From: Candidatus Woesebacteria bacterium GW2011_GWB1_33_38
GTDB taxonomy: Bacteria; Patescibacteriota; Microgenomatia; UBA8517
Direction of reading: 5' to 3'
Assembly: GCA_000990005.1 (NCBI GenBank)
Contig: LBPF01000003.1
Coordinates: 7,479-71,478 of the forward strand
Length of the DNA: 64,000 bases
Shown: piece by piece, positions 3,833 through 53,945 of the stretch
How positions within the stretch are numbered: position 1 is the first letter of the stretch
Layout: the number at the start of each line of letters is the position of its first letter
The notes under the pieces: model-generated
What the model saw: only the letters and a program-made list of their open reading frames with translations
The model's database searches: none
Told to the model about the DNA's origin: nothing
Translations under genes and position numbers: made by a program

Positions 3833-4160
3833 ACTTATTTTAGTTTACACAACTTGGGAAAATGCAGAACAGGCAAAAGAAGCGGGCAGAAAGTTACTTA
3901 AAACAAGAACATGCGCCTGTGTAAATGTTTTACCTCAACTTTATCCATTGTTTTGGTGGCCCCCAAAACAAAATATTATTGATGAATCTAGTGAAGTGGT
4001 AATGATAATTAAGACATTAAAATCAAAATTTGAAAATTTGGAGAAAGAAATATATAAAATTCATCCGTATGAAGTTCCGTGTATTATTGCAATTCCAACA
4101 TACAAAGTTAATAAAGGTTATTATGATTGGATAAAAGGGGAAATAAATCAACAATCATGA
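3825..4160 (+). CDS. cutA: divalent-cation tolerance protein CutA
   Basis: VYTTWENAEQAKEAGRKLLKTRTCACVNV...HPYEVPCIIAIP...YYDWI matches CutA1. Confidence 0.75.
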   Translation: MDELILVYTTWENAEQAKEAGRKLLKTRTCACVNVLPQLYPLFWWPPKQNIIDESSEVVMIIKTLKSKFENLEKEIYKIHPYEVPCIIAIPTYKVNKGYYDWIKGEINQQS

Positions 4161-45069: not shown

Positions 45070-45311
45070 TGTTAACTCAAACTTTTAATATATCATTACC
45101 TAATGATTTAGTAAAAAAAGCCGATTTGGTTGCAAAAAGAGAATATAGGAATAGAAGCGAACTTATTAAAGAAGCACTTCGGACATATTTATTTAACAAA
45201 CTCTCGTGGGAGGAACTATTTGTGTATGGAAAAAAGATGGGTAAAAAAATAGGAATAAGTAGCGAGGAAGATATCTTTGAAAAATTAAATAATTATCGAA
45301 ATGGAAGCTAA
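45063..45311 (+). CDS. ribbon-helix-helix (CopG/ParD-like) antitoxin
   Basis: 82 aa; NISLPNDLVKKADLVAKREYRNRSELIKEALR. Confidence 0.5.
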   Translation: MYMLTQTFNISLPNDLVKKADLVAKREYRNRSELIKEALRTYLFNKLSWEELFVYGKKMGKKIGISSEEDIFEKLNNYRNGS

Positions 45312-45720
45312 TCTTCCTAGAATTACAATAGATACAAATGTCATTGTTTCTGCCTTAGTTTTTGGTGGGAATTCAAAAGCAATAATAGAAAAATTAATTA
45401 AAAGTGAATTTATAGCTTACACCTCACCTCAACTTATTTCAGAATTGCTGGAAATTTTACTCCAAAAGTTTAATTTCTCAGATGAGATGACTAAAAAAGT
45501 TGAGGTGCAAATAAATTCACTTTTTCATATTATCTATCCTGCTGTAGAAGTAAACATAGCTAGAGATAGAGATGATAACAGGGTATTAGAAGTAGCCGAA
45601 GAAAGCGAAAGTTCGATTATAGTTACCGGAGATAAAGATTTATTGTCACTGAAAGTTTACAAAAACATCATTATAATGAATCCAAAGACATTTCTTACCT
45701 TTTTAAATTTAAATGACTAA
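45301..45720 (+). CDS. PIN-family toxin-antitoxin toxin component
   Basis: ITIDTNVIVSALVFGG...VTGDKDLL; overlaps the antitoxin gene. Confidence 0.65.
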   Translation: MEANLPRITIDTNVIVSALVFGGNSKAIIEKLIKSEFIAYTSPQLISELLEILLQKFNFSDEMTKKVEVQINSLFHIIYPAVEVNIARDRDDNRVLEVAEESESSIIVTGDKDLLSLKVYKNIIIMNPKTFLTFLNLND

Positions 45721-48480: not shown

Positions 48481-50568
48481 TTGCATATGGCCAAGAGACA
48501 CAAAAGAAGAACAGACAAAAGGGCTTTTAAGTTAAAGCTTAAGCCTCAAACAATGGCTTCAATTGCCCAAGTTTTTTTCTTTGCAGTGGCATTTTTGATA
48601 ATAATATCTTTTTCCAGAAGGGGTCTAATCTTGTTTCGTTTTAATGACATGATGATGGAGATTTTTGGTTGGGCAACAGTTTTTTTACCCTTCATATTTC
48701 TATCTTTCTCTTTTCTGGTAAGTAAAATAAAATTACCTCTTTCTCAACCAAATGTAATAGTTGGCTCAATTTTAATTTTTTTATCCCTTGCTGGACTTGG
48801 CAAATCAGGAAATCTTGGCCTTATTTTTTGGGAAGGTGTTTCAACTTTAGTTACTCCAGCCGGAGCAATAATTATCTTTTTTGGAATTACTTTAACTGGA
48901 CTTATAATATTATTTAATACATCATTTGACCAAGTATTTAAAATTCTGAAAAACTTTTGGGGGACAATCAACCTTTATATCTTTGGTCAAAAATCTGCGG
49001 GAGGCGGAAGAATTTTACCTAGAAAAGATTTCAAGATTTCAGGTGCAACACCAGTCACTGTCCCCGTTATAAATATACCAAAACAAAAAGAGGTCTTAGA
49101 AGAAAAGTTAATCAGCAATATTAAGGGTGAGGATACTATTTGGAAATACCCATCAATTGATTTATTCTTTGGAGATCAAATTGGAAAAGTTGACAGGGGA
49201 GACATTAACGGGAACGCAGATATTATTGAAAAGACACTTGAATCATTTGGTATTACTGCAAATATTGTTGAAGTAAACTTAGGCCCTGCAGTTACCCAGT
49301 ATGCAATTCAAGTAGCACTTGGCACTAAGCTTTCTAAAATCACAGCTTTAGAGCGTGATTTGGCCTTAGCATTATCTGCCCCCACAGGTACAATTAGAAT
49401 TGAAGCGCCAATTCCTGGAAGAAACTTAGTCGGTATTGAACTTCCCAATAGGTCTCCTGAATTTGTACCGATAAAAAGAATTCTCGAGTCAGAAGAAATG
49501 ACAGGCAAAAAATCAAAACTGGCGGTTACTTTAGGGCTTGATGTTTCTGGAAAACCAGTTATAGCAGACTTAAATAAAATGCCACATGTTTTAATTGCTG
49601 GTCAAACGGGCTCTGGTAAATCAGTTTGTATCAATACATTTTTGGCATCAATTCTTTATAGAGCTAGCCCTTCCGAAGTTAAATTTATTATGGTTGATCC
49701 AAAAAGAGTTGAATTGACAGGTTATAATGACATTCCACATCTTTTGTCTCCTGTTATAGTTGAGACCGACAAAGTTCTTTCTGCCCTTCGCTGGCTTACT
49801 CGTGAAATGGACAGAAGATATGAGCTTTTTGAACGAGCTGGAGCTAGAAATATTGATTCGTATAATGAAATGAGTGGTTTTCAGGCCCTTCCATACATTG
49901 TTTTATTAATTGATGAACTGGCTGATGTTATGCTTCTTTCTCCAGTTGAAGTTGAAGATGCAATTACACGAATTGCCCAAATGAGCCGTGCAACTGGAAT
50001 ACACATGGTTCTTGCAACACAAAGACCGTCGGTTAATGTCATTACAGGGCTTATTAAAGCAAATATTCCTTGTCGTATTGCCTTTGCTGTTTCCTCCCAA
50101 GTTGATTCAAGGGTTATTATGGATACTCAAGGGGCTGAAAAACTACTAGGTAAAGGAGATATGCTTTATCTTCCCCCAGATCAAGCAAAACCTTCAAGAA
50201 TTCAGGGTGCGTTTGTTAATGATGCAGAAATTAAAAACTTAGTTAGTTTTGTTAAAAATCAAGGCGTACCAGTTCAGTATACCGAAGAAGTTACTACAAT
50301 GACTAAATCAGGTAAGCCAGCAGTTGCTGGAGTTATTGGAGATACAGATGATTTATTTAGTGAAGCTATTAAAGTTGTTTGTCAGTATGACAAAGCTTCA
50401 GCCTCGCTTCTTCAAAGAAGACTCTCGATTGGTTATGCACGAGCTGCTAGGGTTATGGACCAATTACAAGATGCTGGTGTTATTGCTCCATCAGATGGTT
50501 CATCTAAACCGCGAGAAGTACTCATTAAAAATGCAGACGATTTTTTAAATAGTATAGGCTCTAAATGA
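48481..50568 (+). CDS. ftsK: DNA translocase FtsK/SpoIIIE
   Basis: N-terminal TM helices; Walker A GQTGSGKS; LLIDELAD; C-terminal gamma winged helix. Confidence 0.9.
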   Translation: MHMAKRHKRRTDKRAFKLKLKPQTMASIAQVFFFAVAFLIIISFSRRGLILFRFNDMMMEIFGWATVFLPFIFLSFSFLVSKIKLPLSQPNVIVGSILIFLSLAGLGKSGNLGLIFWEGVSTLVTPAGAIIIFFGITLTGLIILFNTSFDQVFKILKNFWGTINLYIFGQKSAGGGRILPRKDFKISGATPVTVPVINIPKQKEVLEEKLISNIKGEDTIWKYPSIDLFFGDQIGKVDRGDINGNADIIEKTLESFGITANIVEVNLGPAVTQYAIQVALGTKLSKITALERDLALALSAPTGTIRIEAPIPGRNLVGIELPNRSPEFVPIKRILESEEMTGKKSKLAVTLGLDVSGKPVIADLNKMPHVLIAGQTGSGKSVCINTFLASILYRASPSEVKFIMVDPKRVELTGYNDIPHLLSPVIVETDKVLSALRWLTREMDRRYELFERAGARNIDSYNEMSGFQALPYIVLLIDELADVMLLSPVEVEDAITRIAQMSRATGIHMVLATQRPSVNVITGLIKANIPCRIAFAVSSQVDSRVIMDTQGAEKLLGKGDMLYLPPDQAKPSRIQGAFVNDAEIKNLVSFVKNQGVPVQYTEEVTTMTKSGKPAVAGVIGDTDDLFSEAIKVVCQYDKASASLLQRRLSIGYARAARVMDQLQDAGVIAPSDGSSKPREVLIKNADDFLNSIGSK

Positions 50569-51185
50569 ACACAGTTGGCCAAACTTTAAAAACGGCTCGT
50601 TTAAAGAAAGGTGTTTCTTTAATTAAACTTGAGAATTTAACAAAAATTAAAAGAGAATTTATTTCAAAAATTGAAGATAACGATTGGGATAATTTGCCAG
50701 AATTTCCTGTAGTTTCTGGGTTTGTTAAAAATATAGCAAGTGCGTTAGGCATTTCTACGGGTAATACAAATGCAATACTAAGGAGAGATTATTCTCCTAA
50801 AAAATTAGCTATTAATCCCACTCCCGATGTGGGAAGTAAATTTGTTTGGTCTCCAAAACTAACTTTTGTTGTTGGAATTAGCTTCTTACTTATTTTGGTT
50901 TTGGGATATTTGGGATTTGAATATATAAAATTTATAAAACCACCAGGACTTATTATTTTAACTCCAGTAGAAAATGAGAAGGTTTTACAAACAAAAATAA
51001 AGATTGAAGGTAAGTCGGTTACAGATGCAACCTTAACAGTTAATAATCAATTAATAATTATAGACCAAGATGGGAAGTTTAAATCGGAAATTGAAATTAC
51101 CAAAGACACCAAAGAATTAATATTTATTGTGGTTTCAAGATCTGGTAAGAAGACTGAAAAAGTTATTAAAATAGCTGTAGAATAA
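50565..51185 (+). CDS. RodZ-like HTH membrane protein
   Basis: N-terminal XRE-type HTH (LKTARLKKGVSLIKLENLTKI), single TM, C-terminal beta-rich domain. Confidence 0.5.
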   Translation: MNTVGQTLKTARLKKGVSLIKLENLTKIKREFISKIEDNDWDNLPEFPVVSGFVKNIASALGISTGNTNAILRRDYSPKKLAINPTPDVGSKFVWSPKLTFVVGISFLLILVLGYLGFEYIKFIKPPGLIILTPVENEKVLQTKIKIEGKSVTDATLTVNNQLIIIDQDGKFKSEIEITKDTKELIFIVVSRSGKKTEKVIKIAVE

Positions 51186-51189
51186 TAAT

Positions 51190-51426
51190 ATGGATGGAGT
51201 TCAAAGACTTTTAGTAATTGTAGTTATAACCTTAACAGTTCTTCTTGTCATTGTCGGTGTTCAGGTTGTTTTTATTATTTTAGATCTTAGAAAATCAGTA
51301 AAAAGATTAAATTCAATTTTAGAAGATTCAATTTTAGGTGGAGGATTAATAAGACCAGAGCGCTTAACAGGAATTGCTGAAATGTTTAAGAAAGATAAAA
51401 GTATTACCACCCACGGACAAGAATAA
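51190..51426 (+). CDS. small membrane protein; its last 16 nt are duplicated at 51984-51999
   Basis: 78 aa, N-terminal TM. Confidence 0.35.
   Translation: MDGVQRLLVIVVITLTVLLVIVGVQVVFIILDLRKSVKRLNSILEDSILGGGLIRPERLTGIAEMFKKDKSITTHGQE
51406..51421. repeat. left copy of the 16-nt direct repeat ACCACCCACGGACAAG flanking the RelE/Phd cassette
   Basis: Perfect match to 51984-51999. Confidence 0.85.
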
Positions 51427-51428
51427 AG

Positions 51429-51686
51429 CTAGTGTTTATAGGCCCCCTGTCGATGTTGGATTTTATGTACGATAATTATGTTTCTTTTTTTATCAAACTC
51501 GTAAATTATTCTGTATGGCCAAGCACGAACAGAATAAAACGATTTTAACTCTCCAGTTAGGGGCTTTCCAAGTAGAGGACTTTTCTCAATAGCCCTTAAT
51601 TTCTTTAACACTTTCTTTTTTTCGACTTTTGGAAGTTTTGCAAATTCTTTTTCAGAATTTTTAGTTAAGAGCATATTTTTTCTCAA
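51429..51686 (-). CDS. RelE/ParE-family toxin
   Basis: KSFYSVRAWPYRIIYEFDKKRNIIIVHKIQHRQ. Confidence 0.7.
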   Translation of the reverse strand: MRKNMLLTKNSEKEFAKLPKVEKKKVLKKLRAIEKSPLLGKPLTGELKSFYSVRAWPYRIIYEFDKKRNIIIVHKIQHRQGAYKH

Positions 51687-51861
51687 TCTCTTCTAAAGTT
51701 ATAAAATTTCCCTTTTTGTAATCCTCTCTAGATTTTTTAATATCGGTCATTAAATTTTTATCTGTCAAAATATCCAAAGTTTCTTCCCAAGCCTCCACAT
51801 CTTCAATAGGCATAACAACAGCTTTTGTTTTTCCACGATGGGTGATTACAAAACGACGCAA
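51661..51861 (-). CDS. Phd/YefM antitoxin; a conserved N-terminus continues to about 51903 with no canonical start codon
   Basis: ITHRGKTKAVVMPIEDVEAWEETLDIL; the upstream in-frame TIPANIARANFYQILEEV segment is also YefM-like but lacks ATG/GTG/TTG. Confidence 0.55.
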   Translation of the reverse strand: MRRFVITHRGKTKAVVMPIEDVEAWEETLDILTDKNLMTDIKKSREDYKKGNFITLEEIEKKYALN

Positions 51862-51983
51862 GTTATTTCCAACTTCTTCAAGTATTTGATAGAAGTTAGC
51901 TCTGGCTATGTTTGCTGGTATTGTTCCTGCTAATACGTTTATGTTTAAATAGTACTACTACTCGTACCACTTGTCAATACCTG

Positions 51984-51999
51984 ACCACCCACGGACAAG
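51984..51999. repeat. right copy of the 16-nt direct repeat; in frame it would encode THGQGE*, resembling the gene end at 51409-51426
   Basis: Perfect match to 51406-51421; a promoter TTGACA-17-TACTAT for the antitoxin lies immediately inside on the minus strand. Confidence 0.85.
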
Positions 52000-52226
52000 G
52001 GGAATAATCTTTATTAAAACCAACCTTCTTTAGTATTTCTATTGCGCATTTTAGCTAAGTCTTTAAGCAACGGTTTTTCCAGTGGAGCAAGTTGTTTTTG
52101 GTGTTCATCAAAACTTATTTCCTCTCTTTGGTATTGGCCTAGAAGTGCGTCTTTTATCTTGTTTGGTTGATCATTCATTATCTTTTGATAATACTACTAA
52201 TAATTATCAATTTCTAGCTGTATAAT

Positions 52227-53945
52227 TTGGCCACAATGATAACTTCTAATGAGGTTAGAGAAAAATACTTAAAGTTTTTTGAAAAAAGAGGGCATGTGAT
52301 TATTCCCCCTGCTCCTTTGGTTTTAGAAAATGATCCAACCACCCTTTTCACCTCAAGTGGTATGCAACCACTAGTTCCATATTTGATGGGTAAAAAACAT
52401 GAATTAGGAACAAGACTTGTTGATTCACAACCTTCTGTTCGTGCTCAAGGTAAAAATGATGATATTTTAGAGGTTGGTGATAGCCGCCATTTAACATATT
52501 TTGAAATGTTGGGCAATTGGAGTTTGGGTGATTATTTTAAAGAAAAACAACTTCCATGGATTTGGGAATTTTATACAAATGAATTGAAAATACCCAAAGC
52601 TAAGTTATATGTAACTCTTTTTGAGGGAGATAAATCAGTTGAGAAGGACCTTGTTTCATATCAGATTTGGAAAGATTTGGGAGTTGATGACGATCATATA
52701 TTTTATTATGGAGTGAAAAAGAATTGGTGGAGTAGGAGCGGAACCCCGGACGAGATGCCTGAGGGCGAAATTGGAGGACCAACATCAGAAGTGTTTTATG
52801 AATTTACACAGACTCCTCACAATAAAAAATTTGGTGATAAGTGCCATCCTAATTGTGATTGCGGAAGATTTTTAGAAATTGGGAACAATGTTTTTATGTT
52901 GTACAAAAAATCAAAAAGCAAACTGAAAGAACTTCCTCAAAAAAATGTAGATTTTGGTGGGGGTTTGGAAAGAATTGTTGCTGCGGCGAACGATGATCCG
53001 GATATATTTAAAATTGATTTATACTGGCCGACTATTGAGAAGGTGCAGAAAGCTTTTAATATGAAATATCTGGAGAATCAAAAAACAATGCAGATAATTG
53101 CAGATCACTTGAGGTCATCTGAAGCCTTGATAAATAACGGTGTTGTTCCCTCCAATAAAATGCATGGATATATCTTAAGAAGATTAATTAGAAGAATCGC
53201 AATAAAGTTGCCTGAATTTGAGAAAATAACTGACAATCCAGTTATTCTAGAGGAATTAAAAAAGTTTAAAGTAAGTCTTGATAAAGGCTTAAAAGAGATT
53301 AAAAAAGTTGAAAAGATAACTGGTAAAATAGCCTTTGATTTATATCAATCATACGGCTTCCCTCTTGAGTTGACCATTGAACTGTTTGAAGAAAAAGGCC
53401 AAAAGGTTGATTTGGAAGAGTTTAGAACAGAGTTTGATAGACATAAAGAAGCCTCAAGAAGTCTGTCGACCGGCATATTTAAAGGAGGTCTTGTGGATCG
53501 TGGCGAGGAAACAACAAAGCTTCATACACTTACCCATTTATTGCATGCAAGTTTAAGGAAAATCTTAGGTGATACTGTTTCTCAAAAAGGAAGTCACATA
53601 ACGCACGAGAGGTTAAGATTTGATTTTTCATATCCAGAAAAATTAACTGATATACAAGTTAAAAAAGTAATCGATCTAATAAACGAACAAATAGATAAAA
53701 ATTTACCTGTAACTTTTGAAGAAAAAACTCCTGATGAAGCCATCAAAGAAGGCGCTTTACATTTTTTTGTTGAAAAATATGGTGAGAAGGTAAAAATGTA
53801 CTCTATCGGTGACTTTAGTCGAGAGATTTGCGGTGGACCGCATGTAACTAACACAATCCTTTTAAGGCATGCTAAAATGATTAAGCAGGAGAAAATAGGG
53901 TCAGGAGTTATACGAATATATGTTAGATTTTTTGAAAAAAAATGA
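52227..53945 (+). CDS. alaS: alanyl-tRNA synthetase (short form, with editing-domain HxxxH motif)
   Basis: FTSSGMQP, GDSRHLTYFEMLGNWSLGDYFK, HTLTHLLHASLR, GGPHV. Confidence 0.85.
   Translation: MATMITSNEVREKYLKFFEKRGHVIIPPAPLVLENDPTTLFTSSGMQPLVPYLMGKKHELGTRLVDSQPSVRAQGKNDDILEVGDSRHLTYFEMLGNWSLGDYFKEKQLPWIWEFYTNELKIPKAKLYVTLFEGDKSVEKDLVSYQIWKDLGVDDDHIFYYGVKKNWWSRSGTPDEMPEGEIGGPTSEVFYEFTQTPHNKKFGDKCHPNCDCGRFLEIGNNVFMLYKKSKSKLKELPQKNVDFGGGLERIVAAANDDPDIFKIDLYWPTIEKVQKAFNMKYLENQKTMQIIADHLRSSEALINNGVVPSNKMHGYILRRLIRRIAIKLPEFEKITDNPVILEELKKFKVSLDKGLKEIKKVEKITGKIAFDLYQSYGFPLELTIELFEEKGQKVDLEEFRTEFDRHKEASRSLSTGIFKGGLVDRGEETTKLHTLTHLLHASLRKILGDTVSQKGSHITHERLRFDFSYPEKLTDIQVKKVIDLINEQIDKNLPVTFEEKTPDEAIKEGALHFFVEKYGEKVKMYSIGDFSREICGGPHVTNTILLRHAKMIKQEKIGSGVIRIYVRFFEKK

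Follow-up and report, generated by a model that had tools for sequence, protein, structure and literature searches.

In a 64-kb stretch of Candidatus Woesebacteria DNA (contig LBPF01000003.1; hereafter the window, whose numbering is used for all coordinates) a RelE/Phd toxin–antitoxin (TA) gene pair is enclosed by two copies of the 3′ end of X78, a gene for a 78-aa predicted membrane protein which precedes the gene of AlaRS. From the repeat, empty sites in relatives, the variability of the X78–AlaRS junction, parallel cases in other lineages and allele differences between the gene ends we infer that this arrangement probably is a recombinant joint of two versions of this hypervariable junction, which would have arisen by homology-facilitated illegitimate recombination. 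The TA module itself looks attenuated. A remnant of a gene end is the kind of trace left by displacement-type recombination; such an event is ordinary and would not surprise a specialist, and it is well documented here.

The repeat and the X78–AlaRS junction

The region contains the following features (ORF, open reading frame).

51190–51426, plus strand: X78, the live gene of the 78-aa predicted membrane protein conserved in Woesebacteria/Microgenomates, ending in SITTHGQE and stop
51406–51426, plus strand: repeat copy 1, the exact 16-mer (51406–51421) followed by AATAA with the stop; final codons of X78
51429–51686, minus strand: RelE/ParE-superfamily toxin ORF (PF05016), 85 aa from TTG 51686 or 81 aa from ATG 51674
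51661–51669, minus strand: junction of a 34-nt deletion relative to loci L149 and L063, with the break near 51664/51665 in a TTAA microhomology
51661–51942, minus strand: Phd/YefM antitoxin frame (PF02604), 93 codons, codon 1 being ATA at 51940–51942
51977–51949, minus strand: promoter of the Phd–RelE operon, TTGACA (51977–51972), 17-nt spacer, TACTAT (51954–51949), 6 nt to codon 1
51981–52007, plus strand: second copy of the repeat, left over from an X78 3′ end, with the exact 16-mer at 51984–51999; its frame reads L-T-T-H-G-Q-G-E-stop
52014–52178, minus strand: orf54, a small gene of unassigned function, convergent with the X78-end remnant
52221–52238, plus strand: AlaRS −10 box TATAAT (52221–52226), 9 nt, ATG 52236; right conserved edge of the variable junction

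The 16-mer ACCACCCACGGACAAG occurs exactly twice in the window, both times on the plus strand. No further match with up to two mismatches was found in the window, and 100 shuffles gave an expectation of 0. Including the stop codons, the true repeat comprises 21 nt in copy 1 and 24 nt in copy 2, namely ACCACCCACGGACAAG and, across a 3-bp indel, AATAA versus ACCACCCACGGACAAGGGGAATAA. The 562 bp between the copies (51422–51983) harbor the RelE/ParE ORF, the Phd/YefM ORF and their promoter. The description of a RelE/Phd pair flanked by 16-bp direct repeats, given in an initial annotation of the window, is borne out. The base composition and GC content of the cassette are the same as those of its flanks in the window. 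The X78 and orf54 proteins match Rifle groundwater records of Candidatus Woesebacteria (GW2011_GWA1_33_30). The arrangement is shared by more than 20 contigs from several samples, and it is therefore not an assembly artefact.

Homologs of X78 are numerous (777 detectable) and nearly all have 77–80 aa, mostly 78 aa; no family of Pfam or NCBIfam was matched by X78. Their commonest C-terminus is THGQE, which is also the end of the live gene in the window (SITTHGQE). The frame of copy 2 reads (L)TTHGQGE, and the C-terminus THGQGE was found in none of the 120 homologs listed; alleles with a THGQG end are known from L140 and L148. Copy 2 is a genuine leftover of an X78 3′ end, which could be that of either the recipient or the donor. 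Eighteen nucleotides of copy 2 (TGACCACCCACGGACAAG) are identical to the X78 ends encoding SMTTHGQE in L006, L060, L063, L065, L070, and L075, so that the match to these common M-type alleles is 2 nt longer than the match to the window's own end. In addition, a GGG indel distinguishes copy 2 from the live end. The indel and the two extra nucleotides weakly suggest that copy 2 originates from another X78 allele.

The comparison covered about 150 Woesebacteria loci (L numbers), drawn from the genomes of 52 species representatives, from 72 metagenome loci and from additional contigs to which exact-protein look-ups led. Throughout the 52 genomes and the 72 metagenome loci the order FtsK, RodZ-like helix-turn-helix protein, X78, AlaRS is kept. 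In ∼70 of ∼115 informative loci the junction is empty, that is, only 15–60 bp lie between the X78 stop and the AlaRS ATG, and the −10 box of AlaRS is located within this spacer. These empty sites support the earlier assumption that the RelE/Phd pair is an insert, and mark it as accessory. About 45 loci have an occupied junction with inserts of 70–3100 bp and very diverse content, including small ORFs on the plus or minus strand, a NUDIX protein and a histidine phosphatase. Even strains with identical X78 (P0009) show five states of the junction: empty, a gene of 92, 97 or 116 aa, or RelE/Phd. The empty sites, the diverse inserts and these five states make the junction a hypervariable spot. No end motif or palindrome common to the ∼45 different inserts was found.

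The RelE/Phd pair is closely tied to this place. All close Phd homologs that were looked up (75–91% identity) lie at the X78–AlaRS junction in the same orientation, and the clade was found only there. In all cassette versions the RelE stop codon either is separated from the X78 stop by 1–2 nt (2 nt in the window) or, as in L045, overlaps it. Between the window, L149, and L063 the homology is unbroken from X78 through RelE and Phd to the promoter and ends with ...cttgtcaatac at 51979/51980. Past this point L149 and L063 run into the AlaRS promoter and the window runs into copy 2 and orf54. A second X78 end is absent in seven cassette versions at the same junction (L063, L140, L148, L149, L152, L023, and L150). 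With at least seven versions free of it, the repeat is therefore not intrinsic to the cassette.

Second X78 ends in other lineages and a proposed origin of the arrangement

All occupied junctions were scanned for second X78 ends with shuffled-tail controls. Besides the window, such ends are present in five other lineages (one of them, L027, only possibly), in each of which two cassettes are stacked.

L045: X78, RelE, Phd, copy 2, orf70, AlaRS; copy 2 of 37–50 nt, 35/37 over the core
L042: X78, NUDIX gene, copy 2, RelE; copy 2 of 25–35 nt, directly abutting RelE
L131: X78, 187-aa ORF, copy 2, RelE; copy 2 of 14 nt, directly abutting RelE
L126: X78, 48-aa ORF, copy 2, orf108, AlaRS; copy 2 of at least 33–48 nt
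L027: X78, 44-aa ORF, copy 2, 96-aa ORF, AlaRS; copy 2 of 13 nt

A 15-nt repeat in L029 was discarded, as the gap holds a run of N and the repeat may be a scaffold artefact.

In the stacked cases copy 2 together with the next gene matches the place where X78 meets that gene in a relative without the other cassette. By alignment, the L045 cassette with its second end of 37–50 nt has its exact empty site in L046, in a lineage independent of the window, which upholds the view that the second repeat is the remnant of an X78 3′ end. Likewise, a homolog of orf108 from L126 lies directly against X78 in L048, and a homolog of the 96-aa ORF from L027 does so in L060. The right edge of copy 2 always takes in the stop codon and the left edge varies (−13, −21, −21, −35, −36 to −50, and at least −48). 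The second end in L126 matches the X78 end of another lineage (28/30 to L020) and is unlike L126's own. In L045, too, the second end departs from the live one (35/37).

A different situation is found in L144–L147. There X78 departs from the family sequence after AAAAATAAATCTC, and its end has been replaced (...KNKSHTSNREN and stop; L144 ∼4024–4060) beside an inserted orf64/orf74 unit, a remnant being absent. It looks as if the join had replaced the gene end instead of duplicating it, which would be the complementary outcome.

We also noted a basic ORF of 44–48 aa (…KKTWLFDGDSPKSTWRRNVGKNKKIHMIESK…) directly after X78 in two lineages (L027 4191–4325 and L126 1675–1821). It matches no family, and in both lineages a second X78 end follows.

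We suggest that the arrangement in the window was formed from two versions of the junction. Version 1 would have resembled L149 and L063, with RelE and Phd after X78. In version 2, X78 would have been followed by orf54 and AlaRS, an order that L011 and L046 show with small genes of their own. One crossover would have been homologous and located in the conserved flank, and on the other side the molecules would have been joined illegitimately ∼21–27 nt before the end of version 2's X78, with the joint at ∼51980/51981. The X78 end at 51981–52007, located between orf54 and the promoter of Phd, would then survive as a noncoding remnant.

This logic is that of the 3′-end displacement arrays, that is, the orphan modules of rhs and contact-dependent inhibition (CDI) systems and the effector-immunity modules of the Vibrio cholerae type VI secretion system (T6SS), for which sequential displacement via homology-facilitated illegitimate recombination was proposed (PMC5361080). 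In these arrays as well as at the X78–AlaRS junction, the upstream gene is constant, the adjoining cassette keeps its joint, a displaced 3′-end remnant, possibly of another allele, stands before the other cassette, and an integrase is lacking. One conserved homologous junction, the X78–RelE joint, is combined here with a second junction at variable positions. In L126 and in L045 the remnant stems from an allele other than that of the live gene, and in the window there is a weak indication of this. In contrast to the arrays, the constant gene is not a toxin gene but encodes a 78-aa housekeeping-type membrane protein, the remnants have only 13–50 nt, the cargo consists of unrelated small genes including a TA pair, and the host is an uncultivated member of the candidate phyla radiation (CPR). 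Within this group, Saccharibacteria have been shown to be naturally competent, and a conservation of com genes across CPR/Patescibacteria has been reported (PMC10633639).

Several points weigh against this proposal. The mechanism is deduced from end products, and a microhomology at the joint would be assignable only with the parental sequences. Competence has been shown for Saccharibacteria, not for Woesebacteria (PMC10633639). The 13-nt repeat of L027 is no better than the shuffled controls, and the copies in the window and in L131 start at the same codon position (−21), which could hint at a preferred site. Moreover, an X78 ending in THGQGE and directly followed by orf54 was found in no relative: the exact look-up of orf54 returned the same arrangement only, a JGI metagenome scan with orf54 returned nothing, and the homolog search did not yield it either. 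The search for an empty site, as advised in the initial annotation, was thus successful in ∼70 relatives with X78 near AlaRS but not for the window's own version 2. Outside the window population orf54 has no close homolog. Finally, the identities of FtsK and AlaRS are poorly coupled across the junction (94% vs. 79% for L005–L117, 85% vs. 89% for L011–L013), and the values of the pair window–L004 (93% vs. 77%) are within the spread of the pairs. This discordance is suggestive only; it may mean that recombination often breaks at the junction or close to it.

Among the other explanations a site-specific or Campbell-type integration has to be considered, in which a small circular RelE/Phd cassette with an X78 end recombined into the chromosomal X78 end, either by means of an unknown recombinase acting in trans or by RecA on short homology, and left the X78 end as attL and attR. 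Such an integration would account for the exact 16-bp direct repeat that overlaps a gene 3′ end and flanks the insert, as is the case for many integrative elements. Furthermore, the repeats of L131 and the window have their first codon and ACCCACGGA in common, and the arrays formally resemble the stacking of integron cassettes. We nevertheless regard integration as unlikely. At the same site seven cassette versions are without repeat, the repeat length ranges from 13 to ∼50 nt where a constant core is expected of an integrase, copy 2 of L126 stems from a distant allele, the unrelated cassettes have no common end motif, no recombinase gene is found in or adjoining the cassettes within the fetched flanks, and the cassette was never found away from the X78–AlaRS junction.

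Like integron arrays, the junction collects small promoter-proximal cassettes, often TA modules, stacked at one site with short repeats between them. Unlike integron arrays, it has no attC-like imperfect palindromes at the ∼45 insert ends and no intI or other integrase gene within the fetched flanks, most boundaries are free of repeats and the repeat length is variable. Integrative elements that use a gene 3′ end as attB and bring a replacement end resemble the window in that the repeat extends over a conserved gene's 3′ end with its stop codon, the live gene being intact; they differ in that no integrase is seen here, the 562-bp insert contains the TA pair only, the insert also occurs repeat-free and there is no constant core.

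A single ancient insertion followed by vertical descent, with empty sites arising by repeated deletion, in part between the repeats, appears somewhat less probable still. On the one hand, the divergence of the TA module approximately tracks that of the host (82% for Phd and 80% for FtsK in L023, 54% and 70% in L045), and neither the junction that holds the cassette nor its left joint ever changes. On the other hand, the copy 2 of each lineage resembles its own X78 end or that of a near relative and not a common ancestral one, and a neutral remnant of 16–37 nt would not have stayed unchanged through so much divergence. The content of the junction varies among strains whose X78 protein is identical. 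In addition, the nearest Phd (L149, 91%) is in a host with 83% X78 identity, whereas hosts at 92% have a Phd of 80–86%.

A transposase-type insertion with target-site duplication would explain the direct repeat around the insert and is effectively refuted by the variable repeat lengths and the repeat-free occurrence of the same cassette, and is further opposed by the lack of a transposase (the insert ORFs being RelE and Phd only) and of terminal inverted repeats, by the length of 16–50 nt, which is neither constant nor in the usual range, and by the differences of the copies beyond 16 nt. Thus, the interpretation put forward in the initial annotation, namely the footprint of an insertion that duplicated its target or of site-specific integration, is not supported in view of the repeat-free versions, the varying repeat lengths (13, 14, 25–35, 37–50, and at least 33–48 nt), the foreign second end of L126 and the lack of transposase, integrase, terminal inverted repeats, and shared end motif. 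Relatives with the same arrangement and no repeat, which the annotation itself had named as refuting its view, do exist and speak against a footprint intrinsic to the cassette. A direct repeat around a TA pair need not be the footprint of a mobile element.

More far-reaching ideas are speculative and in our opinion improbable. The X78 3′ end (...T-H-G...) might be a dedicated recombination site at which an unrecognised trans-acting system stacks small gene cassettes, that is, an integron-like platform of CPR bacteria without linked integrase. In a milder form, the junction might be a natural record of transformation-driven homology-facilitated illegitimate recombination in uncultivated Patescibacteria. 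Separately, a leaderless AUA might be a working and deliberately weak start of the antitoxin (see below).

With the recombinant joint as the preferred explanation, the junction clearly illustrates, in several lineages, the gain, stacking and loss of accessory genes in the tiny and gene-dense genomes of CPR bacteria, in which obvious mobile-element tools are few. All this takes place at one permissive junction between conserved genes, and the short displaced gene ends would be the scars of illegitimate joins.

State of the TA module

The cassette in the window is, as read from its sequence, a RelE/Phd type II TA module in which Phd and, after it, RelE are under a promoter of the leaderless type. 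The antitoxin scores 52.6 bits against PF02604 (cut-off 29.8) and 34.6 bits against TIGR01552 (cut-off 20.8). The toxin reaches 33.7 bits with PF05016 (cut-off 23) and 32.6 bits with PF05973 (cut-off 23.9) and stays with 20.6 bits below the cut-off of 27.9 of the RelE_StbE model TIGR02385. It retains the family-conserved motifs GKPLTGELK, WPYRIIYEF, and HKIQHRQGAYK, the last of which, a C-terminal motif of the H-R-x-x-x-Y type, aligns with ...VDHRADIYR of Rv2866. TTGACA-17-TACTAT is the best sigma-70-like promoter match of the region. Two GTAC motifs are located in the spacer and in the −10 region; by comparison with the operators of YefM they are probable operator sites.

The closest solved structure to the toxin is Rv2866 (3g5o_B, E 4e-6), and the module resembles Rv2865–Rv2866 of Mycobacterium tuberculosis (PDB 3G5O) in several respects: two small overlapping genes with the antitoxin first, matches to PF02604 and PF05016 above the cut-offs, and promoter GTAC motifs as expected of an autoregulated yefM-type operator. 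Unlike Rv2865–Rv2866, the module in the window has ATA as antitoxin codon 1 and a toxin whose start and first ∼7 codons are deleted and which is sub-cut-off for the RelE/StbE model.

Within the first 27 codons of the Phd frame there is no in-frame ATG, GTG or TTG. The first canonical start is TTG 51861, and a start at this position would cut 27 N-terminal residues from Phd. In seven cassette versions the promoter and the 5′ end of the gene align gap-free with TTGACA, 17 nt, TAC(T/C)AT, and codon 1, the distance between −10 box and codon 1 being usually 6 nt (9 in L143, 8 in L148). Codon 1 is ATG in L063, L023, L143, L148, L147, and L045, and ATA in the window; ATA is identical in 5/5 independently fetched contigs of the window population. 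The Phd homologs have 91–95 aa and start at the aligned ATG. Going by this alignment, the N-terminus of Phd is not missing, but the start codon has undergone a G-to-A change. Accordingly the initial annotation was right in noting an N-terminal segment devoid of canonical start codons, whereas the truncation that it considered has not occurred. Gene order and toxin overlap are canonical; a complete Phd gene with a canonical start is not present. Public annotations give this antitoxin as 50 or 66 aa.

In 7/53 large ORFs of the window a −10-like hexamer has its end exactly 6 nt upstream of the ATG, compared with ∼1 at other offsets, and this is thus the modal layout. With a distance of 5–9 nt the number is 16/53. 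The hexamer often comes with TG (e.g., TGCTATAAT, GTGTTATAAT, TGGTATACT), and examples of the start sites concerned are 41874, 43522, 58493, 56578, and 11141. A Shine-Dalgarno-like motif was found for 4/47 ORFs. Leaderless or near-leaderless mRNAs therefore seem to be common in this genome, and such promoters, in which 6 nt separate the −10 box and the ATG, matter for gene calling. Because the 6-nt layout is modal and Shine-Dalgarno motifs are rare, the Phd transcript is very probably leaderless, with the frame 51661–51942. Codons other than AUG are poor starts when located at the 5′ terminus of leaderless mRNAs. In extracts of E. coli, AUA is able to initiate translation when its context is optimised and leadered (PMC5499595).

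A second lesion concerns the toxin. An alignment of the Phd–RelE boundary of ten cassette versions places the 34-nt deletion between two TTAA microhomologies. The deletion removed the stop region of Phd, the spacer, the RelE ATG and ∼7 RelE codons. By chance the length of Phd was kept (...YALN and stop), and the RelE frame became open upstream into the 3′ end of Phd, where ATG 51674 and TTG 51686 lie. A second copy of Phd or RelE that would be able to supply antitoxin in trans was not found in the window.

The module thus looks attenuated. Most probably the toxin is disabled or hardly made, and the changed antitoxin start is decay that does no harm; in the simplest reading the first damage was to the expression or folding of the toxin, after which an antitoxin lacking its start could be tolerated. 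It speaks against decay that both TA frames are still open, and the module may be functional, that is, attenuated but working. A TA module with two initiation lesions bears on the question how fast such modules decay.

In the window a second, unrelated TA-like pair is located at 45190–45720, ∼5.5 kb upstream, adjoining the genes of UDG and RNase J. It comprises a small RHH_1-type ORF followed by a PIN_3 (VapC-like) ORF of 139 aa (45301–45720).

The gene orf54 and the AlaRS side of the junction

The gene orf54 occupies the position at which relatives carry other small minus-strand genes; its analogues abut X78 in L011, L046, L083, and L102. It matches no family of Pfam or NCBIfam, and a database homolog search returned only orf54 itself. 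At the compared loci the only homolog is orf64, which is 41% identical, is located at the same junction in the Rifle Woesebacteria L144–L147 and has the C-terminal NTKEGWF in common with orf54. There a 74-aa ORF and orf64, the latter in second place, form a two-gene unit between X78 and RelE (L144 3587–4007), and in L144 orf64 shows a weak match to the antitoxin-like UPF0175 (E 0.04). Thus, orf54 of the window may be the orphan of a pair of the orf64/74-aa type. Apart from this match and NUDIX in the L042 insert, the other ORFs of the junctions gave no matches to Pfam or NCBIfam, and a scan of 50000–53500 with Rfam gave chance-level matches only.

The 5′ regions of Phd and orf54 (51939–51960 and 52178–52199) share an 18/22 match on the minus strand, TAGTAGTAYTAT..., which could be due to chance in AT-rich DNA or reflect a common type of promoter or operator.

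The nucleotides CACGGACAAGAATAA at the X78 end (51412–51426 in the window; in empty sites, e.g., L004 4215–4264) are conserved well beyond the need of the protein. In empty sites they lie ∼17 nt upstream of the AlaRS TATAAT and may double as the −35 element of AlaRS (cGGACA). At the TA-bearing loci the divergent Phd −35 element, TTGTCA, sits in the place of cGGACA.

In L002 (6819–8528), which belongs to the same population as the window, AlaRS is called as two ORFs of 168 and 396 aa; this is either a frameshift or assembly error in the contig or a strain variant.

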